Below, one piece after another: positions 843 to 63,514 of a stretch of 64,000 nucleotides of DNA. The first letter of the stretch is position 1, and every line of letters starts with the position of its first letter. Under the pieces are notes generated by a model. It worked only from the letters and a program-made list of their open reading frames with translations. It was not told the DNA's origin and ran no database searches. The translations under genes were made by a program, and so were the position numbers. The stretch is from an uncultured delta proteobacterium (GTDB taxonomy: Bacteria > Desulfobacterota > Desulfomonilia > UBA1062): contig CAWAUM010000003.1 in NCBI GenBank assembly GCA_963785235.1, positions 443,090 to 507,089 on the forward strand, given 5' to 3'.

Positions 843-1295
843 TTAAGAAAGTATTTCCACCAACTGCCTCTCAAGTTCTTCTTGTGACTGGGCACCAATA
901 ATGTTTTTTATGGCATTGCCTTTCTTGAAAAGAACAAGACTCGGGATGGACCGGATACCATAGCGTGAGGCTGTAACAGGATTTTCATCTACATTCACCT
1001 TCACAACTTTAAGCCTGCCAATATATTTTATAGCGAGATTATCAAGTATAGGTGAGACCATCTTGCACAGCCCGCACCATGGAGCCCAGAAATCAACAAG
1101 TACCGTCCCGGGGTAATTGAGGACTTCATTGCTAAAGTTTGCATCGCTCGCTACGGTAGGATGTACAGGAGCAGTTGCTGCATCAATAGGCCCATGGCAC
1201 TTACCGCAGAAGGCCTTTTTATCAATGCGGCTCCTGGGTATTCTATTTTTGGCACCGCACTTGGAGCAGATTACAATAAAACTTTCATTATCCAT
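843..1295 (-). CDS. trxC: Thioredoxin 2 (N-terminal Zn finger)
   Basis: CSKC...CGKC Zn ribbon followed by the thioredoxin fold VDFWAPWCGLC...YGIRSIP. Confidence 0.9.
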   Translation of the reverse strand: MDNESFIVICSKCGAKNRIPRSRIDKKAFCGKCHGPIDAATAPVHPTVASDANFSNEVLNYPGTVLVDFWAPWCGLCKMVSPILDNLAIKYIGRLKVVKVNVDENPVTASRYGIRSIPSLVLFKKGNAIKNIIGAQSQEELERQLVEILS

Positions 1296-1621
1296 TTTCT
1301 TTCCTTTATACGCTTCAGGACGTACATGAACCTACCTACCAACCGATAATCTCCCTTTTTTCCTTTCTTGTCTTTTCCTTCCTTTCTTTTCTATAGGGGC
1401 TCATCCCATCATTTTTCCAGGGGGGGGTAGATAATAATTTCCATTTATGTACGATTGGATTCAGCATAGTGAGAATCATATTGACATGCGGATCAGGATT
1501 ACTTATACTCATGCCAGATTGATATATTGATCAATTTTATCTCTTTGTATTTATTCATTTTATCAAGCTGTTCAGATTAAAGTAAAGAGATAAGACTACT
1601 TAGCAAAGGAGAATAACAGCT

Positions 1622-3262
1622 ATGACAGCCTTCCGAGAGATCACCATGGGTAAACTCATCAGAGAAACCGCATTAAAATTTCCGGACAACGACGCCCTCA
1701 TATACCCGGATATCAACCTCAGGTTGAGTTATCAGGAATTGCTTGAAAAAACTATAGGGGTCGCAAAGGGGTTTATGGCGCTGGGTATACAGAATGGTGA
1801 TCATGTCTCGGTATGGACAACAAATATACCCGAATGGGTCTACTTGCAGTTCGGACTAGGGATGATAGGTGCAGTGCTTGTGACAGTGAACACAAATTAT
1901 AAATCCAATGAGCTCGAATATATCCTCAACCAATCCGATTCCACTACCTTGGTTCTTATGGAGGAATACAAGGATACTAACTTCTACAAAACCACCCAAG
2001 AGGTTATCCCTGAGTTAAATTCCGCCACACCGGGAAAACTGGGCGTACCAAAATTGCCAGATCTCAAAAATGTGATTTATATTGGTAATAGGAAAGAAAC
2101 CCCTGGGATGTTTTCTTTTGATCAGATTTTTGCCATGGGCAAGGACATATCTGATGAACAGCTAGCAAAACGCGAAAACATGGTTCAATTCAATGATGTT
2201 GTGAACATGCAGTATACATCCGGCACCACCGGCTTCCCTAAAGGTGTAATGCTCACACACTACAATATCATCAATAATGCACGGATGGTCGGCGATGTCA
2301 TGGGCATGACCGAAAAAGACCGGTTGCTTATACAAGTCCCCCTTTTCCATTGCTTCGGATGCGTCATGAGCTCGCTTAACTGTATGGTGCACGGCTCAAC
2401 AATGGTTCTCGTGGAGTATTTTGATCCTGCAAAGGCATTGAAATACATCGAGCAGGAAAAGTGCACAGCAATTAACGGCGTCCCGACCATGTTCATCGCC
2501 ATCCTTGGTCATGCAGAGTTCAGCAAGTATTCTATGAAGTCCCTCAGGACAGGAATTATGGCTGGGGCGCCCTGCCCGATTGATACAATGAATCAGGTAA
2601 TCGAGATAATGCATTGCCCTGAGGTCGTGATCGCTTTCGGTCAGACAGAATCCTCTCCTGTGATGACCATGACAAGGAGAGATGATCCTATTGACTTTAG
2701 GGTAGCAACAGTTGGGAGACTGCTGCCTGACATAGAAGGTAAAATCATAGACCCGGCAACAGGAGATGATCTTCCCCCCGATATTCAAGGTGAAATCGTC
2801 ACTAGGAGCTCATGTGTCATGAAGGGTTACTATAAGATGCAAGATGAAACGGCCTATGCAATAGACAAGGATGGGTGGCTCCATACAGGCGACCTAGGCA
2901 CCGTTGATGAACTTGGGTACTTTAAAGTCACTGGCAGGATCAAGGAAATGATCATCCGTGGCGGGGAAAACATATACCCCAGAGAGATCGAGGAATATCT
3001 CCGAAAAAACACAAAGGTAATGGATGTCTATGTAGTCGGCATCCCTGATAAAAAATATGGTGAACAGGTCCTTGCTGCTATTATGTTAAAACCGGGAGAG
3101 AATGCCACTGACAATGAATTTATCTCCTTCTGTCAGGGAAAGATAGCCCGTCATAAGATACCAAGATATTGGGAATTTGTGGAATCAGTACCCATGACCG
3201 CGAGTGGAAAGGTGCAGAAATTTAAGATGGTGGAACAGTACGCCCAGAAATACTCAAATTGA
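1622..3262 (+). CDS. AMP-forming acyl-CoA synthetase (fatty-acid-CoA ligase, YngI/ACSF2-like)
   Basis: YTSGTTGFPKG AMP-binding loop, FGQTESSP, GWLHTGD, IIRGGENIYPREIE; AAGGAG RBS. Confidence 0.92.
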   Translation: MTAFREITMGKLIRETALKFPDNDALIYPDINLRLSYQELLEKTIGVAKGFMALGIQNGDHVSVWTTNIPEWVYLQFGLGMIGAVLVTVNTNYKSNELEYILNQSDSTTLVLMEEYKDTNFYKTTQEVIPELNSATPGKLGVPKLPDLKNVIYIGNRKETPGMFSFDQIFAMGKDISDEQLAKRENMVQFNDVVNMQYTSGTTGFPKGVMLTHYNIINNARMVGDVMGMTEKDRLLIQVPLFHCFGCVMSSLNCMVHGSTMVLVEYFDPAKALKYIEQEKCTAINGVPTMFIAILGHAEFSKYSMKSLRTGIMAGAPCPIDTMNQVIEIMHCPEVVIAFGQTESSPVMTMTRRDDPIDFRVATVGRLLPDIEGKIIDPATGDDLPPDIQGEIVTRSSCVMKGYYKMQDETAYAIDKDGWLHTGDLGTVDELGYFKVTGRIKEMIIRGGENIYPREIEEYLRKNTKVMDVYVVGIPDKKYGEQVLAAIMLKPGENATDNEFISFCQGKIARHKIPRYWEFVESVPMTASGKVQKFKMVEQYAQKYSN

Positions 3263-3284
3263 TCAAACTGCTGATAAATCTATA

Positions 3285-3344
3285 AAAGGTTGCGCCTTCA
3301 TTCTGAGCTGACCAGATTGGGAATCGAGGCGCAACCTTTCTTTT
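3285..3344. terminator. Hairpin between convergent genes, probable terminator
   Basis: 13-bp arms AAAGGTTGCGCCT (3285-3297) / AGGCGCAACCTTT (3327-3339), with a T-run after and an A-run before. Confidence 0.65.
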
Positions 3345-3381
3345 AAGGTCTATAATATACCCCTAAGTTTGAATGATCCGT

Positions 3382-5493
3382 TTATCTATCCACTTTTCTG
3401 ACCCTCATTCGTGCATCAAGTGCAAGGAGACCTTTGTCTTCGGAAAAAACTCTGACCGGATTGACATCGAGTTCATCTATGCGGGCGAATCTGTTCATAA
3501 GGTGGGATACCCTCACCACGCAATCAACAAATGCATCGATGTCATAAGGATCTTGTCCCCGGTATCCCTTGAGTAAAGTAAATGATTTCAACCTTTCCAG
3601 TTTTTTCATAACCTCCTGTGGCGTTGTCGGGCACAATACAGTAGCAACATCTTTTAAGATCTCAATAAACACACCTCCCATCCCGAAGAACACTACCGGC
3701 CCAAATGAGGTATCATGTTTTGCACCGATGAACATATCGCATCCAGTCGACGCCATTTGTCCGATCCTTACACCCTTGAACCGTGCATCCCTCTTGTAAG
3801 CAAAGAGATTATCTCTAAGTTCCTTATATGACCGCCTTACCTGGTTCACATCCCGAACATTGAGCACTACACCTCCTGCTTCGGACTTGTGGAGTGCATC
3901 TGGAGAGACAACTTTCATTACAACAGGAAATCCTATCTTCTGAGCATACTTTGCAGCCTGATCTGCATCTTGCGTCACCATGCTTTTTGCTGCAGACACA
4001 CCGAATGTCTCCAATAGCTCTATGGATTCTTCTCCTAAGTCACCGGACTTGTCCTGTATCCATGAGTCGGCCTTACGCAACCGGACCCCTCCCGGCATCT
4101 CAGTTTTGAAAGCAGGTTGCAACTTGTGCTCATGGAATTTCATCTGCATTGCCATGACCCGAACCATCTCTTCAGCGCTGTTGAAAACCGGGAAATTCAC
4201 TGTCCGCTTTGTCTGCAAGATCATTCTCGAAGGTCCGAAGAGGCATATCCCGAGAGGTTTCCCCGAAGAGAGGATCGTTCCCCAGGCCTCTTTCGACATA
4301 TCAGTGAGGAACATGCGGTAAAAGACATTTTCCCCGGCCGGCATCTGGGGGCGTTGGCCAACAAAGAGCACACCATCAACCTGATCGCTGTGCATTACGG
4401 AATAGATCACATGGGCTGAAAGCTGCGGATCGTAGATATCCCCCATATCCAGCGGGTTCGAGAACTTTATGACGCCGGCATTGGAAAACTTCTGCAAGCT
4501 TTCATAGAAATCCTGACCAGGGTCAGCAAAGGTAAAGCCGGCCTTCTCACAAAGGTCTGTAGTGATGACGGAGAATCCTCCGGCAGGGCTCATCACCATG
4601 ACCCTCCTTCCCTTCATGGGAGGGAGTTCGAATGCCTTCACCGTGGCAAAGAAATCATGGTAGTTGTGGATACGGATCACACCAGCGCGCTCAAAAGCTG
4701 TATCGAGGATTACATCATCATTGCTGAGCGCAGCGGTATGGCTCATGGCAGCCTTTCTCCCGGCGCTCGTCGTATTTGATTTCAGTACAACAATAGGTTT
4801 GGGGCTCTGCATGGCAACCTCGATGAACCGCTGCCCCCTTTCGATGCTCTCCAGATACAGACAGATAATCTTTGTATCCGGATCGGAAATGAAATATTCG
4901 AGGAAGTCTACTTCGTCGAGATCGAGCTTGTTTCCGATACTCGCAAACTTGGCCATCCCGATATTCTCGTCTACAAGAAAATTGAACATCATGAGGGCTA
5001 CCCCTCCGCTCTGGGCTATCACCGACATGCCGCCCTCAGGCGCCTTGTGGAGAGGAACGAAAGGCAGACAAAGGCCATTGGCCGTGTTGGCAACCGTTAC
5101 CCCATTGGGCCCGACGAACCTGATCCCCCATTTCCGGGCCGCCCCGAGTGTCTTTTCTGCAAGCTTTCTCCCCTCTTCGCTGAACTCGGAAAAGCCTCCG
5201 CTCGAGATAGCCATCCGTTTGATGCCGAACCTACCGCATTGTTCGACCACATCGGGTACAAACCTGGCAGGGATAAGACAGTATGCCAAGTCCGGCACTT
5301 CTGGAAGGTCCGCAAGACTGCGGTATATCTTTATGCCGTCGACATGAATGTCCTCGCCTTTGGGATTGATCCCGAAGATCCTGCCCCGGTATCCCCAGCG
5401 GAGCATGTTTTCCAGGGTCATCCGGGGAATGTTGCTGGATTTTGAAGAAAGCCCGAAGATCGCTATTGATTCAGGATAAAAAAGTTTTTCCAT
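3382..5493 (-). CDS. ADP-forming acyl-CoA synthetase (acetate-CoA ligase family, fused alpha/beta)
   Basis: CoA-binding N-domain, GPNG, SQSGG-like AQSGG, catalytic His in AAMSHTAAL, C-terminal ATP-grasp (HKSEAGGV, FGPVVFFGMGG, ELDVNP). Start moved to ATG 5493 because of a GGAGG RBS. Confidence 0.9.
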   Translation of the reverse strand: MEKLFYPESIAIFGLSSKSSNIPRMTLENMLRWGYRGRIFGINPKGEDIHVDGIKIYRSLADLPEVPDLAYCLIPARFVPDVVEQCGRFGIKRMAISSGGFSEFSEEGRKLAEKTLGAARKWGIRFVGPNGVTVANTANGLCLPFVPLHKAPEGGMSVIAQSGGVALMMFNFLVDENIGMAKFASIGNKLDLDEVDFLEYFISDPDTKIICLYLESIERGQRFIEVAMQSPKPIVVLKSNTTSAGRKAAMSHTAALSNDDVILDTAFERAGVIRIHNYHDFFATVKAFELPPMKGRRVMVMSPAGGFSVITTDLCEKAGFTFADPGQDFYESLQKFSNAGVIKFSNPLDMGDIYDPQLSAHVIYSVMHSDQVDGVLFVGQRPQMPAGENVFYRMFLTDMSKEAWGTILSSGKPLGICLFGPSRMILQTKRTVNFPVFNSAEEMVRVMAMQMKFHEHKLQPAFKTEMPGGVRLRKADSWIQDKSGDLGEESIELLETFGVSAAKSMVTQDADQAAKYAQKIGFPVVMKVVSPDALHKSEAGGVVLNVRDVNQVRRSYKELRDNLFAYKRDARFKGVRIGQMASTGCDMFIGAKHDTSFGPVVFFGMGGVFIEILKDVATVLCPTTPQEVMKKLERLKSFTLLKGYRGQDPYDIDAFVDCVVRVSHLMNRFARIDELDVNPVRVFSEDKGLLALDARMRVRKVDR

Positions 5494-5641
5494 ACATACC
5501 CTCCACATAGTGAGGTTGTGAAATCACTGTTTCTCATCTCATGGTGCCCATGGGAACTTGGAGTATTTGAGTAGGATTATTATAATAAACTCATTTGGGG
5601 CGTAATGCATGTTATTTTCAGTCTTCAAAAACGAAAGGATA

Positions 5642-5675
5642 CCGGGTGCAAAGGCATGAAAACCCCTGCACCCGG
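5642..5675 (-). terminator. Stem-loop after the acyl-CoA dehydrogenase gene
   Basis: CCGGGTGCA / TGCACCCGG arms just past the stop codon. Confidence 0.5.
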
Positions 5676-5681
5676 ATGTTG

Positions 5682-7547
5682 CTATGAGGCAAAACTTTCT
5701 TCGGGTATCTCGATGATGGACATATCCTCATTCTTGATGGCCTTCACTGCAGCATCCACCTCCGGGAGCACATTTCTGATGAAATACTGGGCGCCGGCAA
5801 CTTTGCCTATGTAGAACGCGGCATCCTTGCTGGATTTTGCCAACCCGGCTAGAGCCGTTTTATCCGCAGGATCGATGCCGTTCTGCCTGGCAAGCCCATC
5901 GAGCTTTTGCTTGGCAACACCCGCTTGCCAATAGAGGAACCAGCCGGATACCACCTTGCCCATCATCATGAGGAAGGGATAAGCACTGCTGATGGGCACG
6001 AAAAACTTGCCTGCCTTTCCACAATTCGCCAAATAAAGACCCATATCAGCAAGGGCATCCACACTTGCCTGAACGTTGTTGGCAAGATCCTTCAAGCCAT
6101 CCACATCTTTATATTTCGTCACGGTAGAACCCATGAGGCTAAGTATATTCATGAAATAGACACCCTTCTTCATACCCAGCTTTCTGCCAATGAGGTCCAG
6201 GGCCTGGATACCGTTTGCCCCCTCATAGATGGATGCAATCTTTTCATCCCGCATGAACTGCTCCACCGGGTATTCGCTGCAGAAGCCATATCCGCCATAA
6301 CACTGCATGGCAGTCTCCGTAACCTTGAACCCGATGTCTGAGCTGTAGGCCTTTACAATAGGAGTTAGTATCTCTGCATATCCGAGCCACTTGTCTTTTT
6401 CTGCATCATCTGATGCAATCTTATGCATGTCAAAGCAGTACGCCGTAAAGTAAGTTAAGGCCCGCAGGCTGTCCACGTTGGACTTCATCCACAGGAGCAT
6501 CCTTCTCACATCCGGGTGCTGTATAATTGGCACACGCGGAGCCTCAGGGTTCTTCATTTCCAGGAGGGATGACCCCTGGAGCCTCTGTTTGGTATACTGG
6601 AGCGCATGCAGATATGCGATGGAAGCACTGCAGAGGCCCTGCATGCCGACGGCAAGCCTGGCCTCGTTCATCATCTGGAACATGATCTTCATGCCCTCGC
6701 GCTCCTGACCCAGAAGCTCTGCATAGCAATTGTTGTTGTCACCGAAATTGATCAGGCATGTCGCGCTGCCGTGGATACCCATCTTCTCTTCAATCTTGGC
6801 GATCTCATAATCATTGCGTTTACCTAGCGTGTCATCATCGTTGACGAGATACTTGGGGACAATGAATATCGAAATCCCCTTGGTGCCGGCCGGGTCACCC
6901 TCGATCCTTGCAAGAACCGGATGGATAACGTTCTCTACCAAGTCCTGGTCTCCACCGGTGATGAATATCTTTGTTCCCTGAAGTTTAAAGGTTCCATCAG
7001 GCTGACGTATCGCCTTGGTGCTCAGGTTCCCCACGTCGGTACCTGCACCCGGCTCTGTGAGCGCCATAGTCCCGCCCCAGACACCCTGGACCATCTTCTC
7101 CATGTACTTCTTTTTCTGCACCTCGGTTCCGTAGGTCAGGATAAGGTGAGCTGCCCCTTCGGTGGCAAAAGGATAGGCAATGAAGGCGAAGTTATGGTAG
7201 AACCATTCGATAGCTGCATATTTCACACTCTCAGGTATACCCTGCCCTCCCTCCTCAGGGGGAAAAGACATACCGAGCCAACCACCTTCACAAAAGAGCT
7301 TATATGCCCGATGGAAGCATTTAGGCACGTGCACCTTCCCGTCAATGAGCTTGCATCCTTCTTTGTCACCCTCCGCAAGTGTGGGAAGGATCTCTTCCTC
7401 TGCGATCTTCTGTGCCTCGGTGAGGATCATGTTAAAGGTCTCTTTGGAGAAATCCGCATACTTCGTTTGTTCACATACCTTCTCCACCCCAAGCATCTCA
7501 TAGAGAACAAACTGTTGATCCCGTTCATCCAAAATCAAGCTCGACAT
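5682..7547 (-). CDS. Acyl-CoA dehydrogenase (long DmdC/FadE5-like type)
   Basis: MALTEPGAGTD, GTKIFIT, EKMGIHGSATC, MNEARL, GGYGF..EYPVEQ, IYEGANGIQALDL. Confidence 0.93.
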   Translation of the reverse strand: MSSLILDERDQQFVLYEMLGVEKVCEQTKYADFSKETFNMILTEAQKIAEEEILPTLAEGDKEGCKLIDGKVHVPKCFHRAYKLFCEGGWLGMSFPPEEGGQGIPESVKYAAIEWFYHNFAFIAYPFATEGAAHLILTYGTEVQKKKYMEKMVQGVWGGTMALTEPGAGTDVGNLSTKAIRQPDGTFKLQGTKIFITGGDQDLVENVIHPVLARIEGDPAGTKGISIFIVPKYLVNDDDTLGKRNDYEIAKIEEKMGIHGSATCLINFGDNNNCYAELLGQEREGMKIMFQMMNEARLAVGMQGLCSASIAYLHALQYTKQRLQGSSLLEMKNPEAPRVPIIQHPDVRRMLLWMKSNVDSLRALTYFTAYCFDMHKIASDDAEKDKWLGYAEILTPIVKAYSSDIGFKVTETAMQCYGGYGFCSEYPVEQFMRDEKIASIYEGANGIQALDLIGRKLGMKKGVYFMNILSLMGSTVTKYKDVDGLKDLANNVQASVDALADMGLYLANCGKAGKFFVPISSAYPFLMMMGKVVSGWFLYWQAGVAKQKLDGLARQNGIDPADKTALAGLAKSSKDAAFYIGKVAGAQYFIRNVLPEVDAAVKAIKNEDMSIIEIPEESFAS

Positions 7548-54283: not shown

Positions 54284-54637
54284 ATGGATATGAATGCGCT
54301 CATCAATACCATAAAAACACGGCCCGACTATCACAAGGTAGGTATGATCCTGTGCCATAACGGCGTAGTGAGGGGATCGTCCAGAGACGGATCACCCGTA
54401 CAGAAGGTGACGGTAAGGGCAGACCGTAAAGCCATAGACCGGATCGTGGCTGAACAGAAGAACCGACCAGGCATCATCGAGATCCTCGTGGAGATCAACG
54501 AGGGGGACCTGGATATAGGCGAAGACCTGCTGTCCATCGTTGTGGCCGGCGACATAAGGGAGCACGTAATCCCGGTGCTCACGGACACACTGAATCTTAT
54601 CAAGGCGCAAGGGACCAAGAAAACCGAGCACAAATAA
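54284..54637 (+). CDS. moaE: Molybdopterin synthase large subunit-like (short MoaE)
   Basis: GMILCHNGVVR, G.L.IGEDL..IVVAGDIREHV, KKTE. Confidence 0.8.
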   Translation: MDMNALINTIKTRPDYHKVGMILCHNGVVRGSSRDGSPVQKVTVRADRKAIDRIVAEQKNRPGIIEILVEINEGDLDIGEDLLSIVVAGDIREHVIPVLTDTLNLIKAQGTKKTEHK

Positions 54638-54870
54638 TTTTCGTGAAGAATCGATATCGGCAGATGGTGTGTTCATGGAAATATCACCTTTCCCTTACCA
54701 TTCATCGAAATCCTTCACCCGCAAGGGGTGAATGAACTTCTAAGCATAGGTACAGGTAGTATCTCTCGATCTTGTGCTTCTCACCTTTCACTCACCACTT
54801 AATTAACTTTACAAAGTTCCTCCAACCTTGACTCATAAAATATTGTGTGCTACCCAAGGGAGGCTCGTGT

Positions 54871-54946
<76 letters not shown>

Positions 54947-55094
54947 TTTATTTCATTTAGTTACAAGGCCGCACCAAAATATTTGTTCTTGATAATTTAA
55001 CCTGTTGCTGACCTGATGCAGTTTTTTGCTTTATACCTAAGCGTATAATAAAAATCGGTGGATCCCCGCTCTGTGATTCCTTCCTCCGTTGAGT

Positions 55095-55178
55095 ATGACA
55101 TATTAGCTCTTGTCGCTTGTCTACTCATGAAACCTTCGATTATATTGCATAATCATCACTTTAGCCAATATGAATAGT
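55095..55178 (+). repeat. Cassette-end site, left type, copy 1 (L1)
   Basis: 55138-55178 matches 59690-59730 at 35/41 positions ungapped; core GATTAT-ATTGC-ATAATC. Confidence 0.8.
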
Positions 55179-55371
55179 ACTAATACATAATCTACAGTCC
55201 TCACTCTGCTTAAACAGAGATAAACTTATAGTAATCATTCATCACAACCGAGTTTTCGAAGAAGATCAGAGATAATTTTGATCAGCAATAAACATAAGCC
55301 TAATTGTAAAGACCTGATTCTGATCACTATAAGAGAAGAAAGGCGTCACTACAAGCTTGACTTATTATTCA

Positions 55372-56503
55372 TCACTTGGCAGTTTCAACGCGGTTTCGTC
55401 CACACTTTTTAGCCCGGTAAAGGGCTTCATCTGCCCGGGAAATAATGTTTTCAATGTCTTCTCGTATCTGATATTCCGAAAGGCCGATGGAAACAGTAAC
55501 CTTAAAATCAGGGCCAAGTATCTGGAAATAGCGTTTTTTCGATGTTGGTACGCACACGTTCTGCGCAGATAAGCGCCCCTTCGATATCCGTTTGCGTCAG
55601 TACGATCAGGAATTCCTCACCGCCATAGCGTCCGCAAATTTCCGTGGTGCGCATGGGTTTTCTGGATCATGGTGGCGATCTCCGCAATACCACATCACCT
55701 GCCGGATGCCCATAGGTGTCGTTTACATTCTTGAAGTGGTCTATATCCACCATGGCAAGACAGAAGATACCGCCACCTCGCGATGAACGATTCTTTTCTA
55801 ATCAAGGAGCTCCATGAGATGACGACGGTTGTAGACACCTGTTAGTTCATCCCGGATTGCCATTTCCTTGATGATCTCAATGTATTTTGCCTGTTTCGAT
55901 TTGCTGATGCTCAGGTTCTGGCGCAGAGAGCTTATATATCCGCCTATAATGGAAAAAACAACAAGGACGAGGTGCCAAACACCTCCCTGAAGGATTTCCA
56001 TGTGAAAATTGACGCCATCAGGACGGTATATTTTGAGAAGAGCAATATCGATCCCGTAAGTCAACAGGGTAAAAACACTGACTAATAAAAAATCCCGGGT
56101 ATTGAGACGGAAGATACCAAAGAGGAGAATAATGACGTAGACCAGCAAAAGGCGCCACGGGCCGCATTGGCAAAATACATTCCATACATTACCATAAGCA
56201 TGCTGATACAGATCTGGATAACCGTAAGACTGGGATCGGCATTTTCAGATTTAAACCGGTGCGAAAAACGATGTATAAAATAATATTGATAATTGGGCCA
56301 GCAATTATATACCCGTAAATAGCCGGCCATTCCATGATGTTTGCCAGATAGGCCACATAAGCGAGGAAAGGACAGAAGACATACATGGTTGACGCCATAA
56401 AAAAGCGGCGGATGCGCAACGCTTGTTTTGGATCATCCTTTGGTAAGATGGAAAATCGGCTGATAGAATTCAGAAGCGGGGAATTTTGTGATTTATAGTT
56501 CAT
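55372..56503 (-). CDS. Membrane-anchored diguanylate cyclase (GGEEF; several frameshifts)
   Basis: TM N-terminus, AIRDELTGVYNRR, RYGGEEF (minus strand ~55610-55630), VTVSIG, RADEALYRAKKCGRNRV. Confidence 0.85.
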
Positions 56504-56652
56504 AGATTGCCCTCTTAATCGGCTAAAAAAATGGAATACTTGATTTTACTTTAATCTTGCTGCCGCCATGTTCTTTCAGAAAGGCATGTGGTTTTTTGGG
56601 TAAGCTCAAAGCGTAAGTTCATTTCCAAGACCGATGGATTTTCCGGAGCAGA

Positions 56653-56711
56653 GATAACTTTCTATAATCATCTAAAAAGCAGGGCATGGAAAACTATAGA
56701 TAACATGCCAT
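56653..56711 (-). repeat. Cassette-end site, right type, copy 1 (R1)
   Basis: Matches 60677-60735 at 47/59 positions ungapped. Confidence 0.8.
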
Positions 56712-56782
56712 TTCACACGGTTTCTGATTATTGAATGTTTCTACCCACAATCAACACTTTACCCAAATTGAACATTTCTGCG

Positions 56783-58619
56783 GAGAGTGTCGAAAATATG
56801 TTTTCCGAATTGGTGTAGCCCCGGAAATTTAGAGATCCACTTCCGTTACCGAAAGATTTCAGATTTACCTGGTCATTATCTTTTTTTATCTCATCTTCTC
56901 TTATCTCTCTCACTTGCATCTGCATATTTCTGTTCAGGCAAATCCATAATTCGCTATTTTCTCTATGTTGTGGACCATGCAGTACAGCATCCACTGGATG
57001 TTCACCTTGATCTTGCCCCGCAAGGTGAATCGGTCCAGGCGCTTGTGGGTGCGGAGGTTGGCGAATACCGGCTCGATGATCGCAATCCGTCCGTGGGTAG
57101 ATCTTGCGCCCCTGCTCGCTCTCGATCTTCTCCACCATGAGCTTGGAGAGATTGATCCCATCGGCCCCGAGGGGACCATCAAGGTCTTGGCCCACGGCCA
57201 TTGCCTGTAGATGCACCTGCCTCTTACCGGGCAGTCCTCTGCAGTCCTGCTCCTGTGCCCTATAGATGCGATACGCAGTATTGTTTGCAGCATGGCGCTT
57301 TACACTTCATGACGCAGCATCTTCCCGTTTGGGCAGATATACTGTTCTCTCTCTTCATCATAGTGGAAATCATCCAACCCAAAGCGGGTTCTCTTCTTCT
57401 GGCCATGGCGTTCCCGGCCGGCGAACCGAGGATCCCTCGTGCGGAAATATCTGTCAGGGATATAGGCATCCACTCCCTCATCAACGCACTTCTGCATGTT
57501 CGCCTTGCTGTGGTAGTTGGTGTCCGCTGTTAAGGTCTTGTCCCTTGAAGTAATCCGGTGATTGGCCAATGCTCTCCATGTTATCCTTAGCCCCATCCAG
57601 CATCGGAGGCACATGAGCAGTGATCCTGCCCGTTGCCGAAAGCCTCCGCATGGATGATCACCTGGTTCTTGTCATCCACCAGCGCCTGGCTGTTGTATCC
57701 CTGGATGGTCCCATGGGAGGTCAGCATCTTCGTGCACTCGTTGTCCGTGATGTTGCTCTTGATCTCCTTGCCCTTCTGCCCCGATCCGCTTGCCGTTCTC
57801 CTTCAGCCAAGCCTCGATCCTCTCAGCCTGCTTCTGCAGCTTCTCGATGTGCTTCTGCCTGTGAGGACGTTATCGGGGTCGGGAGGCTCATCCCCTTCCT
57901 CACGGTCTTCCTTTTCCTGCTCAGCCAGAAGCTCCTTGACCTTCCCCTCGAGCTTCGCCTGCTTCCTCTTCAGGTCATCCACCGACCCGCTCCACTTCTT
58001 GGATGCGTTGCCCGGAAGCTTGCACCCATCCAGTGCAAAGAGCGTCCCTCCGAGCAGCTCCATCTCCTCGCAGACCAGCAGCACATCCCGGAACAAAGGC
58101 AGGATCTCGTCCTTCATGGATGACACAAAGGCCGCTATCGTGCTGTGGTCAGGATACTGCCCGCTGCACAGCGCCATGAACACCACGTTCTCCCGGCATG
58201 CCTGCTCGATCTTCCTCGATGAGATCAGCCCCCGTGAATACCCCAGCAACACCACCTTCAGCAGAATCCGGGATCGTATGCTCGTCGCCCCATCTCGTCA
58301 TTGCGGTACTTCCCATCGAACAGGCTCATGTCCATCCGCTCGTCCACGAGCGTATGATCGCATACTCCAGGCTCCCGGGCATGATCTGTTCCTGCAGAGA
58401 AATCGGAATCAGCAGGTTCTGTGAAAATTCGTTCTTCTTGTACCGTGCCATCAGACCTTCCTTTTTCCTGAATAGGGGAGATGGTGAGATTATCCTACCC
58501 CCTTGATATTAATCACATAATATCACATAACCAATTGATAATAAAGGATATAATGATGTTTTAGGTAAATTTATTTAGGATGTTCCTTCAGAACATCGCT
58601 AGACTTTTTCGACAGTCAC
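56783..58619 (-). mobile_element. IS1182-family insertion sequence
   Basis: Imperfect terminal IRs GAGAGTGTCGAAAA (56783-56796) / TTTTCGACAGTCAC (58606-58619), GCG on both flanks, internal transposase. Confidence 0.8.
56934..58451 (-). CDS. IS1182 transposase (frameshifted)
   Basis: MARYKK...IPISLQEQI.PG, YSRG.ISSR.IEQAC.ENV.FMAL...PDHSTIA, ALDGCK, QGYN.Q, ADTNY, IEPVFANL..HK..RF.LRG..KV..QW.LYC.VHN. Confidence 0.88.
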
Positions 58620-58803
58620 GCGATATCTTCACGGTTTCAGATGTCTAAAAACTGATGATCTGTTTATGTAACCTCTTCTAAGATCGGCCTTATTACTGAC
58701 TACGCATAATGGAGCGGGCTCTATGGTTACTTCAGAATCCCCCGAAATAAATCTTTCCCTTTATCCTATGCAAGTCGACTCCGACTTCATCATTTAAGAG
58801 ATA

Positions 58804-59492
58804 TCATTTGAGCTCGATCCATATTGCCTTTGCTTTCGCGCAAAGCCCAGCAGATTCTGAAAATACCGCGGTCCCCGTATAATATTTTCTGCCGTCTTCA
58901 GCGATGTTCCAACCGATCACGACGCATCGCTCATTGGCTTTTATATCCTTTAGGATAGCAACGGCGAGTTTCCCAAGGACAATAGTCCTCGGTATGTCTA
59001 CCATGGCAGCAAAGGCCCCAGGGCAGTCAAGGGCCGCCCAGATAAACTCACGCCTTACCAATCCATGGTCATCGCTCATAGAGGTATCAGATATCCATGG
59101 CGCTGCAACCATCCGGCCACCCGCCACAGGACCGGGAAAAATCCTCATCCCATCCCCTATGGCACGTTGCGGACCACAGACAAAGCAACGGGGAAAAGGG
59201 TGGTGCTTGAATCCCAGATAGTCCTTCGAAGCTGTTTGTGCCTCGGCATAGGATGGAGGAGCAGGGACATCCATTTCAAAATCAGCCGGATGGGCTTCAG
59301 CTACGATGTATCACCATCCATGAGTTAACCTGATAATCGCCGACCATTCGGACCTCCAAGTTCATGCTCAAGAGGAGGGGGTATACGGAGAGTAACCTCT
59401 GCAGGGCCTTTTATGAAGCCCCCTACCAGGCCACAAACATATCCGCCTTGCCCTGATGTTGAAGGCCCGCAGTACTTGTGTTCAATAATCAT
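58804..59492 (-). CDS. Double hot-dog thioesterase-like protein (frameshift near 59340)
   Basis: From ATG 59492 (GGAGG RBS) MIIEHKYCGPSTSGQGGYVCG...EVTLRIPPPL; C-terminal HPFPRCFVCG, WAALDCPG, GRK..GTA. Confidence 0.75.
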
Positions 59493-59647
59493 TTTATTCC
59501 TCCATAAGTTCCATTATAACTGTATTTAGAACCTCTGACTATCAACCGTTGATTCCTGCGATAACTTGGTGCTTTTCAAAAGCTCTAGTACCGAAGATCT
59601 TGGTTCGGAACATATAAAGATTTTTACTCCATGTCAGAGCGTTGCAC

Positions 59648-59730
59648 ATGGCACGTTATATTCAGTTTCTCTTGGCTTATTGAACCAATGATTTTATTGC
59701 ATAATCAACGCTTCAGCCAATGTGTATAGT
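59648..59730 (+). repeat. Cassette-end site, left type, copy 2 (L2)
   Basis: ATGGCACGTTAT...GATTTT-ATTGC-ATAATC...GCCAAT; homologous to L1 and, inverted, to R1/R2. Confidence 0.8.
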
Positions 59731-59840
59731 TATATTGATTTATGCTTGATCAAGATAACGTTATGATAATCAAAAGATATTTTCAGCATGTTCTCCTGTT
59801 CTTTTTTCTGTGAAAACCAGAAGGGAAATTATCTCCTGTG

Positions 59841-60473
59841 CTAATTTGTAGTCCACTTAAATTTCCACAGATCACCTAATGCAAGGGGGAAATAATCGCC
59901 CGGATCAGGATCATGAACATCATATTCAGTCAATTCGCCCGTTGTGACTTCTCCGGTATGCCAGGTGTCCTCTACTTTTACTAACCCAACGGCAGGAGCG
60001 AAGTATCTTTTTCGTATTTCAATGAAGCTGCTGTTGCTGTTTGCTGGATCGACACTGGTAGTTTCCACAGTCATTACGCAGGAGGTAAATGTTCCAGCCA
60101 CGACTTCCACCTGTGCATCGGTATCTTGGACCACGATCGTTGAGTCGACATCTGACCACGTGTCGCCTTCTGTAATGGGATACTGCAGGAGTACCCTTGA
60201 CCATATCAAATAGGTTATACTCGTACCATATCCATTAGAATAATCAACCCAAGACAGTCCATCACTGGTGTTGGAAAATATAAGCGTATCACTGCCGCCC
60301 TCGGTTGCTGTCATGCTCCATGTCCCTGGCCCAGTCACCTCGTATGTTTCCGTGCTATCGGGTGGATTAACTTCTCCATTAGCATTATCGACCCCGCCGC
60401 CACTTCCACCGCATGCAAAAAGGCCAGCAAATAAAAGAATAAAAAAACCGATCCATAGGATGCTCTTCTTCAT
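59841..60473 (-). CDS. Lipoprotein of unknown function (related to 24533-25327)
   Basis: Lipobox LFAC-GGSGGG; VEVVAGTF and YFAPAVGLVK motifs. Confidence 0.75.
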   Translation of the reverse strand: MKKSILWIGFFILLFAGLFACGGSGGGVDNANGEVNPPDSTETYEVTGPGTWSMTATEGGSDTLIFSNTSDGLSWVDYSNGYGTSITYLIWSRVLLQYPITEGDTWSDVDSTIVVQDTDAQVEVVAGTFTSCVMTVETTSVDPANSNSSFIEIRKRYFAPAVGLVKVEDTWHTGEVTTGELTEYDVHDPDPGDYFPLALGDLWKFKWTTN

Positions 60474-60676
60474 TTGTCCATGCTCCCTAGAAATATTATG
60501 TGATTATATTCGAATAGATATGTTTGGTAAAGAATGTTTTTTTATGATTTCCTAATAAGAATTATTCTTTTGTGATGTAATCCTCAAAGTTGCAATAGTG
60601 GCACGAGATGTATAAAAATAGTATCGATAGAAACACTAATAGATTTTGTGCCCAGGCCTGAGTTTATTCCAGAGTA

Positions 60677-60735
60677 GATTATTTTTGATAATCATCAAAA
60701 AAGCGGTGCATGGAAAAGCATTGATTTCATGCCAT
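60677..60735 (-). repeat. Cassette-end site, right type, copy 2 (R2)
   Basis: GATTAT-TTTTG-ATAATC...GCATGGAAAA...CATGCCAT; 47/59 identical to R1. Confidence 0.8.
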
Positions 60736-60806
60736 CAGGTTCGCTCTAGATTGAACTGTCTGGTTGTGTAGGTAATATTAGCAGATCATCCGGTCTTGGG
60801 GCATCC

Positions 60807-60839
60807 TGAAACCGCCCATCTTATTGCATAATCTACAGT
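60807..60839 (+). repeat. Partial third left-type site (L3)
   Basis: TGAAACC...TATTGCATAATC at the same spacing as in L1; CATAATCTACAGT also occurs at 55186-55198. Confidence 0.6.
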
Positions 60840-60865
60840 TGATAATTTGATATTGGGATTGGTAA

Positions 60866-60879
60866 TTTTCGACACTCAC
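60866..60879. mobile_element. Solo IS1182-like terminal inverted repeat
   Basis: TTTTCGACACTCAC, 13/14 identical to each terminal IR of the IS at 56783-58619. Confidence 0.55.
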
Positions 60880-61035
60880 GAAAATATCTGGCAGCATTTT
60901 AATTTGCCGGTTATAATATTTTCGGGAATCCTTCAAAGGAACTTCATATAAAAATAAAGGACTTCAATGGACCAATAAGTACTTCTCTCACTATCAGAAA
61001 AACCAAGCATAAAGAGGGAATATTCGACCCTGGTG

Positions 61036-62064
61036 TCAGTATGCCTTTTCCTCATGCATGTTATCCGGAGATATCTTTTCCCGGAATACCCGGTACACCC
61101 AGATCTTGTAGGCGATGACAATGGGCACGAAGATGAGGGCCACCACGGTCATGATGGTCAGGGTGATCTGCTCGATGAGGAGTTGTAGATGGTCATGCTG
61201 TAGTCCGGCTCCAGGCTGACGGGATCAGGTTGGGGAAGAGGCCCATGATGCCGGTGAAGCAGACGGTGATGATGGTAACGCACGATGCGGAGAAGGCCTT
61301 CAGGACGATCACCCTTGAGCAGAAAGACCTTGATCAGGACGAGGGAGCACCGCCAGGAGCGGGAGAACGAAGAGGACGGGCTGTCAGATAGTTCTCGTAG
61401 AGCCTCGTGGCAAAAGCTGTAGATGCAGGAACAGCACCGCAACGGCCAGGAGCACATACCAGCGCGCCGGCCAGGCTACCGCGCGGGCGCTCAGGTCCCC
61501 CCTGGTCTTGACTGAATATAGAGCGCCCCGTGCACCACGAGCAGCACGAAGAGGACCCCGGTGAGGAGCCCGTAGGGATTCAGCAGGGTGAAGAGGGTCC
61601 CGTGATAGCCGCGCCGCATCCATGGGCAGGCCCATGAAGATGTTGCCGAAGGCGACGCCGAAGAGGAGGGCCGGGAGGAGGCTCCCCAGGAAGATGCCCG
61701 CGTCCCAGAGCTTCTTCCAGCTCCGGCCGTGGCCATCTTTCCCCGGAATTCCAGGGACACGCCGCGGATGATCAGGGCGAACAGCAGGAGGAGCAGGGCG
61801 GTGTAGAGGTAGCTGAACATCAGGGCATAGGTTGTGGGGAAGGCGGCGAAGGTCGCGCCGCCGGCCGTGATGAGCCAGACCTCGTTGCCGTTCCATACCG
61901 GGCCCGATGGCGATCACCATGGCCTGCTTCTCGTTTTCGTTCCTCGCCAGGAAATTGTGGATCATCCCGGTGCCGAGGACAAAGCCGTCCAGCATGAAGT
62001 AGACCGCCCAGAGCACGCCCCAGAGGATGAACCAGATAATCTGTAAAATCTGCAGCATTTCCAT
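61036..62064 (-). CDS. cydB: Cytochrome bd oxidase subunit II (frameshifted)
   Basis: LQIIWF.LWG.LW.VYFMLDGF.LG.G, W.GNEVWL..AGGATFAAFP, LI.RGVS.EFR, LLFGVAFGN, distributed over several frames. Confidence 0.9.
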
Positions 62065-62065
62065 G

Positions 62066-63441
62066 TCACACCTCCTGCTTCCGGGCTTCAGGAACTGCCG
62101 GGAAGGGCTTTCTCCGGACCCTGCTTGGCGATACTTCGCGAGAAGATAGATATCAACGATGCCCAGGAAGCGATACAGGAGGGTGAATGCGATCAGGGAC
62201 ACGATCACCTGGGACACGCTGATGGATCGCGACACCGCTTCGGAGGTCTTGAGCATGCCGTAGACGATCCACGGCTGCCTGCCGACCTCGGCCACGATCC
62301 ATCCGAGCTGTACCGGCATATAGGGCAGTGCGATGGCGAGGAGCATGATCTTGAGAAACAGCGGGTTGGATTCCAGCTTGTTCTTGGCGGACAGGTACAC
62401 CGCTGATGACGGAGAGGAGGAGCATCAGCATGCCCAGCATCACCATGAACCGGAAGCTGAAGAAGGTGAGGCCCACGGGCGGCCTCAGATCCTCTGGGAT
62501 GTCCTTGAGCCTTTCACCTCGGCATCGGGGTCATGGTATGCGAGGAGGCTCGTGAGCTTGGGGATGGTGAGGAGTTCCACCGCGTTCCTTTCGTTATCGC
62601 TGTCCGGCACCACGATGAGGCTGAGACCTGCGCCCTTCTGTGTCTCCCAAACGGCCTCCATGGCGGCCAATTTGGACGGCTGCATCTTGCGATTTCAGCA
62701 TGCGTGAGAAGTCCCCGGTGGCAGCGATCACAGACCCGGATACGAGCCCGAAGATTGCGGCTGCCTTGAAGGACCGCCTGAAGAGCTCCGTCTCGTTTTT
62801 CCTGAGCAGGTGCCAGGCCGCGACACCGGTGACGAAGAAGGCCGCCAGGACGTAGCCGGAAAGGACGGTGTGGAAGAATTTGATCCAGCCGTAGGGGTTC
62901 GTCACAACGGCCAGGAAATCGGCCATCTCCGCCCGCTCGGTGATGAGGGGGTTCCCGCTGATCTCCACCAGCTTCGAACCCACGGGGTTCTGCATCCAGC
63001 CGTTGGCCAGGAGGATCCACAGGGCGGACAGGTTGGTGGCGAAGGCCACGATGGTGATGGCCCAGGCGTGCATCTTCCGGGAGACCTTGTCCCAGCCGAA
63101 TATCCATACCCCGATGAAGACCGATTCCAGGAAGAAGGCCACGGTAGCCTCGATGGCCAGGGGCGCGCCGAAGATGTCGCCCACATACTTGGAATACTCC
63201 GCCCAGTTCATGCCGAACTGGAACTCCATCGTGATGCCCGTGACGATGCCCAGGGCAAAATTGATAAGGAAGAGCTTGCCCCAGAACCTGGCCATCCTCA
63301 GCCACATTTCGTCGCCGGTCTTCACGAAGCGCCATTCCATCCAGGCCACGAGCACGGAAAGCCCCAGGGTCAGCGGCACGAAGATGAAGTGGAACATGCT
63401 TGTGATGGCAAACTGCAGCCTGCTGAGCAGCAAACATCCAT
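62066..63441 (-). CDS. cydA: Cytochrome bd oxidase subunit I (frameshifted)
   Basis: LSRLQFA.T..FH..FVPLT.GL, GITMEFQFG.NW, NGWMQNP, QPSKLAAME, GW..AEVGRQPW. Confidence 0.93.
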
Positions 63442-63514
63442 AGACCTCCCCCCAGGTATATTACGGACAGCTTCCCATTGCGGGATAGTGTCCATTACTG
63501 GGTCTTCTTCGGGA

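Follow-up and report, generated by a model that had tools for sequence, protein, structure and literature searches.

To our knowledge, the filing of single genes between dedicated recombination sites is well described only for integrons and dif modules. The pdif site measures 28 bp and consists of a XerC arm, a 6-bp spacer and a XerD arm with the core CATAA-N6-TTATG. The attC sites of integrons have their own specialised family of insertion sequences (ISs), the IS1111-attC group, and in mobile insertion cassettes (MICs) transposon-like ends enclose a passenger gene. An IS family that targets pdif, the IS1202 family, is described in PMC10132070. In Neisseria, arrays of Neisseria intergenic mosaic elements (NIMEs) with dRS3 repeats are presented as proposed recombinase-binding sites promoting the exchange of adjacent genes and as raising recombination with foreign DNA, and ISs and other repeats insert in them (PMC1797815), and repetitive extragenic palindromes (REPs) are described as IS targets (PMC1525189). 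Here, we describe a family of non-coding sites of about 120 bp, of two types termed R and L, that flank genes in a window of 64 kb at the end of a contig (C3) of an uncultured delta proteobacterium. From sequence comparison we give a little under an even chance to the reading that these sites, which are confined to part of one uncultured deltaproteobacterial genus, act as the recombination joints of a cassette-like system.

In its workings the system comes closest to integron arrays or dif modules, yet it fails the defining tests of both. With integron arrays and clusters of attC sites lacking integrases (CALINs) it shares co-oriented sites of about 100 nt, short modules, chimeric border sites, the presence of a module in different arrays and a site-specialised IS family. 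Unlike them, the sites here are unfolded, lack R and L boxes and do not follow IntI; the modules often comprise two or three genes or an operon and run in either direction, and there is a second, inverted site type (L). The pdif modules of Acinetobacter plasmids are likewise gene modules between recombination sites, sometimes inverse, and the evidence for them is likewise comparative, the same module being found in different contexts; the present sites differ in being about 120 bp long with a box and a core and in being chromosomal, and direct R–R arrays prevail over inverted pairs. NIMEs are also non-coding mosaic repeats beside variable genes, but they consist of dense tandem 20-bp dRS3 units with 50–150-bp spacers in hundreds of copies, whereas here single sites of about 120 bp occur every 1–7 kb in tens of copies and are strictly co-oriented. 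REPs, bacterial interspersed mosaic elements (BIMEs), enterobacterial repetitive intergenic consensus (ERIC) sequences and Correia repeats are similarly intergenic, partly palindromic and IS targets; from these and from MICs the sites differ in that no stable hairpin and no target-site duplication were seen, in that their ends are unlike those of nearby transposase genes and in that they were never seen inserted alone between conserved flanks.

The genome studied (G000) is in 13 contigs (C1–C13). It was compared with 14 congeners, giving a set of 15 genomes of the genus in which G011 is the closest relative. Separate R and L profiles were used with nhmmer and set the site limits given below; together they give 45 matches on eight of the 13 contigs of G000. 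An R site is AT-rich and, read towards what we call its 'inner' side, has the consensus ..ACCAGAGCGTCACAAATGGCATGnnATCTAnnGTTTTCCATGCCCCTCTTTTTCGATGATTATGAAAAnTAATCTATGCTCTGGAATAACCATTGGCCTTGG.. A 7-bp inverted repeat (CCAGAGC...GCTCTGG) encloses two motifs: the box, formed by TGGCATG and, 15 nt later, CCATGCC, and, further on, the core, CGATGATTAT-N5-ATAATC. Both could be read in 41 of 72 copies, and in 40 of these they lie 37 nt apart. Eight of the nine positions of GATGATTAT are at least 95% conserved in a set of 48 distinct R copies drawn from several genomes, as are TGGCATG..ATC and a few other blocks, while the median pairwise identity (46 copies) is only 73%. Such rigid spacing and near-invariant motifs, in an element that otherwise drifts to 73%, point to recognition by a protein.

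L sites have the arm CGATGATT(A/T)T in common with R, a constant TATTGCA spacer and the tail CTTTAGCCAATATGAATAGT. The build of both types is mosaic. For R, at least three alternative outer partners were distinguished. In 'type A', the 12 copies that were scored have a GATGATCT motif 47–48 nt ahead of the box; the others are 'type B' and, in back-to-back R.L composites, the L half. Between two ATAATC motifs, some L copies hold a 43-nt block that others lack; L1 has it and L3 does not (55181–55198 versus 60822–60839), which suggests that slippage or recombination has occurred at ATAATC. Immediately to the left of L2, a repeat of about 75 nt (59544–59621), copies of which are found on C5, resembles the 'type A' partner (..GATCTTGGTTCGGAACATA..), so that L2 probably shares its outer module with many R sites.

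Five sites were delimited in the window. L1 (55077–55203, plus strand; L profile E = 7.8e-24) has the core GATTATATTGCATAATC, and R1 (56619–56742, minus strand; R profile E = 1.7e-28) has the box TGGCATG..CCATGCC and the core GATGATTAT-N5-TTATC. L2 (59629–59737, plus strand; L profile E = 1.3e-21) is a hybrid: the left half is R-like, with AGAGCG, a TGGCACG box and a weak R-profile match, and the right half carries the L core. R2 (60639–60759, minus strand; R profile E = 1.5e-28) stands back-to-back with L3 (60749–60875, plus strand; L profile E = 8.8e-18 and composite alignment), which is a complete L site and not the partial one (60807–60839) described in an earlier note on this DNA. Composites like R2.L3 were located at five other places in G000 (blastn of 60668–60833 against C7, C5, C8 and C12).

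L1 and R1 bracket a diguanylate cyclase gene (55372–56503, minus strand) and L2 and R2 a putative lipoprotein gene (59841–60473, minus strand; 210 aa). The identities from which the earlier note had deduced this bracketing were reproduced exactly: 35/41 between L1 and L2 (55138–55178 versus 59690–59730), 47/59 between R1 and R2 (56653–56711 versus 60677–60735) and 35/59 between L2 (59648–59706) and the reverse complement of R1. As it had also stated, the motif ATG[AG]CA[CT][AG] precedes the palindromic core by 42 nt in L2 and in the reverse complements of R1 and R2 and by 43 nt in L1, and AGAGCG-N6-ATGGCA is present in L2 and in the reverse complement of R2, i.e. on either side of the lipoprotein gene. 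On the plus strand of the window, an identity of 35/59 to the reverse complement of R1 occurs at only one position and one of 35/41 to the L1 core at only two, all of them the sites themselves. Genome-wide, the four sites are refound by a profile constructed from them at E = 1e-13 to 2e-22, with 26 further matches at E < 1e-3. Since the window identities are unique to the sites and the profile recovers the sites genome-wide, the flanking-site observation is real and not due to chance. The brackets are present, but the diguanylate cyclase gene is split into at least three frame fragments (open reading frames 55372–55557, 55798–56148 and 56189–56503), only the last of which matches GGDEF (PF00990, E = 6.7e-8), and what had been taken as two cassettes are separated by an IS1182-family IS (about 56783–58620) and a further gene (58804–59492). 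The lipoprotein gene has no Pfam match; the signal peptide of its predicted product, ending in LFAC, fits a lipoprotein. A paralogue at 70.9–71.6 kb on C13 likewise has a weak L-like site at its 3' side.

Orientation and array structure were counted over 90 sites (72 R and 18 L) from G000, loci of six congeners and metagenome contigs, sites no more than 8 kb apart being taken as neighbours. All 25 neighbouring R–R pairs are co-oriented, at a median spacing of 2637 nt (range 873–7388), and the succession R-gene-R-gene-R is directly visible on short metagenome contigs. L–R neighbours are inverted in 15 of 18 cases: seven face inward with genes between them, five are back-to-back and three face outward and are spaced apart. 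The inward-facing L...R pair described in the earlier note is a minority arrangement (seven pairs versus 25 co-oriented R–R pairs) and not the general unit. On C13, three R sites on the minus strand are followed 14 kb further on by three on the plus strand, so co-orientation is local and does not track the direction of replication.

The orientation of R sites is independent of gene direction. Bracketed genes run either way; the inner side of R faces the 5' end of a gene in 25 cases and the 3' end in 31, and in 15 no gene lies within 700 nt, whereas that of L faces a 5' end six times, a 3' end ten times and no gene once. These counts bear on the reading of the sites as regulatory modules, in which transcription-factor or nucleoid-protein sites with promoters sit on accessory genes and the border position is secondary. 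Such a role would agree with the palindromic core GATTAT-N5-ATAATC, which is of the size of a dimer operator, with the near-invariant motifs and with the location of R1 and R2 upstream of the two genes, at distances of 116 and 166 nt. Sigma-70-like elements are also found on the minus strand of L1 (TTGGCT-18-TATAAT, 55139–55168) and L2 (TTGGCT-18-TAAAAT, 59691–59720), reading from the L core outward. The element in L2 points at the minus-strand gene starting at 59492, of which L2 lies about 140 nt upstream, which weakens the argument of the earlier note that L sites lie 3' of the genes. A promoter or operator of the flanked genes was nevertheless rejected because R has no fixed orientation with respect to them. 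Promoter-like matches in the region are not above those in shuffled sequences (15 versus an expected 11.7 +/- 3.8), a hydratase/dehydrogenase operon bracketed by sites in G000 is site-free in G003, and sites are missing from eight of the 14 congeners. A sigma-54 promoter does not fit either, the TGGCAYG box of the consensus lacking GC at the right spacing. We regard a regulatory identity as highly improbable. A small open reading frame in R (peptide MI[IM]KNNLCSGITIGLG) was also discarded, as the frame ends after 7 to 50 codons over 21 copies and has no ribosome-binding site.

The sites form borders of variable DNA. G011 matches the window up to the tRNA-Ala gene (93%) and again from 63510 (94%), and the intervening stretch of about 9 kb is unrelated; in five relatives the similarity extends to the tRNA-Ala gene and then stops. 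Three solitary sites were tested for synteny against the 14 congeners; at all three, conserved synteny ends at the site and only one flank is kept in relatives. Where the orthologous place was checked in the closest relative, no site was found there. Cargo recurs in different contexts. A module encoding an enoyl-CoA hydratase and a short-chain dehydrogenase/reductase (SDR) has copies of 93–98% identity on C7, C9 and metagenome contig L082; these diverge immediately after CATGCCA on the R side, and on the L side the homology between C7 and C9 ends within the L core spacer, between TATT and GCAAAATC. In G003, the genes of this L/R-bracketed module form part of a longer operon that has no site. 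C1 390093–390840 equals C13 67480–68227 at 99.6% from the box on, L086 and C13 have common sequence from the box inward, and one cargo has an identical border just past the (A/T)AAATC arm in G000, G004 and G002. On C5, an L site adjoins a 5'-truncated AAA+ gene, of which a full copy is present on C1. Five homology ends fall at model positions 35–38, i.e. at the box. The cargo is made up of ordinary accessory genes, encoding GGDEF proteins, PAS kinases, sigma-54 activators, amidohydrolases, acyl-CoA enzymes, a segment of a NiFe hydrogenase, a radical SAM protein, an HU-like protein and the lipoprotein. The view of the earlier note that the sites are a repeated family bounding variable genes is borne out by the profile family and by the same cargo in different contexts, and synteny with congeners that ends at the sites accords with the gene exchange it had predicted there.

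Co-orientation, rigid spacing, the borders of variable DNA and the ends of homology at the box (five events) and in core spacers speak in favour of protein recognition and of directional, site-specific growth of arrays. In the proposed scheme, modules of one to three accessory genes would lie between successive sites, giving arrays R-module-R-module-R with all R in the same direction, and L, a relative of R with the same core arm, nearly always lies inverted relative to the neighbouring R. A trans-acting recombinase would bind the box and core and exchange strands there. A circular module with one site would integrate at a resident site, duplicating the site in direct orientation. Excision, swapping or copying of modules would be possible, and arrays might be flipped or capped when inverted L and R sites recombine. 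In the window, the diguanylate cyclase and lipoprotein genes would represent two modules and R2.L3 the junction of two neighbouring units, and the IS1182-family element would have inserted in the box next to R1. More specifically, and more tentatively still, we suggest an undescribed gene-cassette platform, independent of integron integrase and dif, with its own double-stranded site of about 120 bp, a putative recombinase, co-oriented arrays of one to three genes per module and an IS1182-family parasite homing to the box. It looks like a kind not previously described, as judged from the literature on IS1182 targets, pdif, NIME and IntegronFinder, none of which deals with the present genus or site motifs, and from Rfam and protein-family libraries, the site motifs themselves not having been searched.

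The IS1182-family element in the window (about 56783–58620, minus strand; DUF772 and DDE_Tnp_1_6) has a frameshifted transposase gene and the ends GAGAGTGTCGAAAAT / TTTTTCGACAGTCAC and lies in box-like sequence. To its right is a degenerate site remnant (58621–58700, plus strand; ..ATCTTCACGGTTTCAG..CTGATGATCT..), read from the sequence and from the aligned right flanks of three IS copies and falling below the profile threshold. All three copies of the IS in G000 are located at a box, and two diverged copies adjoin L sites; the flanks of the C5 copy rejoin to TGGCACGTAATC.. In G004 (loci L071–L073), five units of 99% identity consist of an R site interrupted at the box by the IS. The five transposase genes, each inside an R site, are 100% identical, which indicates recent activity of the IS there. 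In G002, an IS-end footprint was observed within an L core spacer. The IS is present in five of the seven site-bearing genomes, and among the eight site-free genomes only a degenerate copy was found, in one; this count is soft, since the two site-bearing genomes that lack the IS are also the most fragmented ones. The relation of IS and box would closely parallel, by analogy, the IS families homing to attC or pdif. IS1272, of the IS1182 family, is described as targeting and replacing inverted-repeat structures (PMC5678879), so that an IS in the box need not mark the box as a crossover site.

These observations would also agree with a reading in which R (about 85 bp, from CCAGAGC to GCTCTGG) and L are small non-autonomous transposable elements, or surrogate ends, moved in trans, most plausibly by the IS1182-family enzyme, with adjacent genes dragged along or rearranged. 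The 7-bp inverted repeat of R would then be terminal, and some ends of homology do fall at model positions 19–20 and 97–101; the co-occurrence of IS and sites, the IS in the box in G000 and G004, the footprint in G002 and the target preference of IS1272 would all speak for it. However, the ends of L and R have no sequence in common with those of the IS, and module borders lack the IS inverted repeat, except for a solitary remnant at 60866–60890 (TTTTCGACACTCAC.., identified in the sequence and by comparison with the ends of the IS). No target-site duplication was observed, nor, at the three solitary sites in the 14 congeners, any presence/absence of R between conserved flanks; the co-occurrence is soft for the reason given. 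We consider this explanation improbable. A miniature inverted-repeat transposable element or MIC was rejected on the same grounds, i.e. no match to IS ends, no target-site duplication seen and only one flank conserved at all three solitary sites.

The sites do not fold better than shuffled sequences: as DNA, the R2.L3 composite gave z = -0.17 and R1 gave z = +0.73. RNAalifold yielded no consensus structure in 18 R or ten L copies, and in the Rfam search of 54500–61500 only tRNA-Ala passed, two other matches at E <= 5 being far below their gathering scores. A structured RNA or a folded single-strand site was rejected on these results. They also count against the possibility that the sites are atypical attC sites (CALINs) of a chromosomal integron with its integrase at C12 115395–116384. 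The integrase is present there at full length (329 aa; TIGR02249 464.5 bits, cut-off 265), and the arrays, with sites of about 120 nt in one orientation (25/25 R–R pairs) and short modules between them, do resemble those of cassettes; a crude motif scan detected no canonical attC candidates near intI, in the 100–135 kb stretch of contig C12. Nevertheless, no RYYYAAC/GTTRRRY pair was found at the sites, a crude scan for paired attC boxes gave two candidates genome-wide, neither at a site, there is no site within about 60 kb of intI, and genes lie in both directions. Moreover, G003 (100% complete) is site-rich without an integrase, and four genomes have an integrase without sites. By the features tested (no hairpin, no R boxes, no tracking of IntI) attC sites or CALINs were rejected, and we give this explanation only a very slight chance. 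A dif or pdif identity was rejected because the core GATTAT-N5-ATAATC lies inside a site of about 120 bp and is not CATAA-N6-TTATG; the half-site-like stretch TTATGAAAAAT alone resembles a XerD arm by eye, and a dif-like regular expression hits two unconvincing places in G000. Fur-, dif- or hix-like cores were likewise set aside, the resemblances being partial and by eye. The statement of the earlier note that the sites match neither dif nor attC patterns was upheld.

Several results weigh against the reading of the sites as recombination joints. Five tyrosine recombinase genes were found in G000, encoding a XerC-like protein, a XerD-like protein, the integron integrase, a P4-type integrase domain protein and a 205-aa protein comprising the catalytic domain only; there are two Y1 transposase genes, and no resolvase-family or serine recombinase gene was found in this genome. 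The 205-aa recombinase gene (C5 581505–582122) is located 230 nt from an L-type box, in a module (581160–582252; locus L032 4161–5253) of about 1 kb that is all the two loci in G000 and G011 have in common, the break being at the box. In G011, this module is flanked by a site fragment with a box on one side and a fragment of an L core on the other, as if it had been inserted within a site. The gene is present in only three of the 15 genomes (G000 and two congeners), its copy in G003 is truncated with no site there, and it is absent from G002 and G004, which are both site-rich; it was thus not tied to the sites and is a candidate only. The integron integrase family, above cut-off in eight of the 15 genomes, does not follow the sites either: five genomes have sites and integrase, two sites only, four integrase only and four neither, and the integrase was rejected as the site enzyme. 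Hence, no recombinase could be linked to the sites among the G000 candidates examined, and the mobilising recombinase encoded elsewhere that the earlier note had postulated was not recovered. The cargo, in addition, takes in large multi-gene segments and ordinary metabolic and signalling genes. The ends of homology are scattered, at about model positions 19–20, 35–38, 55, 86–88 and 97–108, which would also fit recombination guided by conserved blocks, and breaks that appear beside the box or core are partly forced by the method, since every copy has a conserved box and core. In G004, the R::IS units of 99% identity have slightly variable ends, at 547–561 on one side and 2425–2464 on the other, and look like conversion tracts. 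Finally, no circular junction, empty site or inversion was seen in contigs of four public runs, none of which spans the stretch; parts that the contigs do not cover carry no weight here. Thirteen public runs from nine studies were available, each with only 0.05–0.14 of the sampled words of the stretch, and no RNA run is listed. One Logan contig joins 59564 to 60806 with 37 other letters between; as an empty site this joint was not usable, being too weakly anchored (29 letters on the shorter side, in repeat modules).

Part of this evidence would be accounted for if the sites were interspersed mosaic intergenic repeats of the NIME, BIME or ERIC kind, without a dedicated recombinase, which persist in accessory regions, attract ISs and, through their short shared blocks, channel homology-assisted or illegitimate recombination with foreign or resident DNA, module exchange being a by-product. 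The modular build (alternative outer partners, the optional 43-nt block of L, the hybrid L2), the ends of homology at several positions along the element, the fuzzy ends of the G004 units and the lack of a recombinase co-occurring with the sites all favour such an origin. The sites are indeed intergenic and mosaic, but there are only about 45 in G000, tens rather than hundreds, and they form no hairpin. The co-orientation of all 25 R–R pairs regardless of genes would be unexpected for passive dispersed repeats, rigid spacing and near-invariant motifs amid 73% identity point to protein recognition, and no site was found at the orthologous place in the closest relative where checked. Conserved blocks of 7–10 nt in repeats of 73% identity are, furthermore, too short for efficient RecA recombination. 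A precedent is provided by Neisseria, where NIME arrays are described as flanking variable genes (PMC1797815). We judge this explanation rather unlikely, and retain the sites as putative recombination joints.

The distribution of the family was examined with blastn using the R2.L3 composite. Matches were obtained in six of the 14 congeners and in none of ten genomes from other genera of the family, and 16 genomes from a second family gave one weak match of 26 nt. When an exact degenerate R pattern was searched in one genome per species (185,579 species), four stretches were obtained, three in records of uncultured delta proteobacterium and one probably due to chance; in metagenomes the pattern gave 19 contigs, of which the profile confirms 18, and in viral contigs no match. 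A Christensenellaceae stretch and metagenome locus L084 were discarded, as they fit the pattern but not the profile or are probably due to chance. By these searches the site family does not extend beyond one uncultured deltaproteobacterial genus, of which only part carries it.

The variable stretch of the window is bordered on the left by a tRNA-Ala(GGC) gene (54871–54946, plus strand; ARAGORN, Rfam tRNA 65.6 bits). The accumulation of cassettes behind this gene suggested by the earlier note holds in so far as the stretch is hypervariable, with about 9 kb of unrelated DNA in G011, but the presence of sites on eight of 13 contigs shows that they are not confined there. In the relative G008 (C16), a 55-nt copy of the tRNA-Ala 3' end (window 54902–54956; locus L030 6489–6543) is located 7.3 kb from the tRNA gene, a repeat of the kind that marks a classical integrase-type island, here at the same tRNA; G000 has none. 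The outer partner module of R1 (56743–56782), interrupted by the IS, was recognized from alignments and from blastn of 56625–56782 against C13 48831–48988 (84%); the module occurs at 48.9 kb on C13 and 11.8 kb on C9 and is similar to the DNA upstream of the small recombinase gene on C5. The gene at 58804–59492 (minus strand) is frameshifted and has no Pfam match; no site adjoins its paralogue at C1 804587–805307 (blastn, 80.7% over 725 nt). Frameshifted cytochrome bd oxidase genes (61033–63437, minus strand; Cyt_bd_oxida_I and II) lie inside the stretch that is missing from G011, in which the match resumes at 63510. Frameshifts break most genes here, i.e. those at 55372–56503, 56934–58450 (the transposase), 58804–59492 and 61033–63437, where the cytochrome bd subunits are fused in one frame; these may reflect gene decay or homopolymer or assembly error.

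If the sites are recombination joints, they would represent a third, sequence-unrelated system in environmental bacteria, so that cassette-style shuffling would have arisen more than once, and there would be a new recombinase/site pair to look for. Under the mosaic-repeat explanation too, the sites would be a precise marker of the exchangeable part of these genomes and would offer a clear case of an IS specialised on a repeat.

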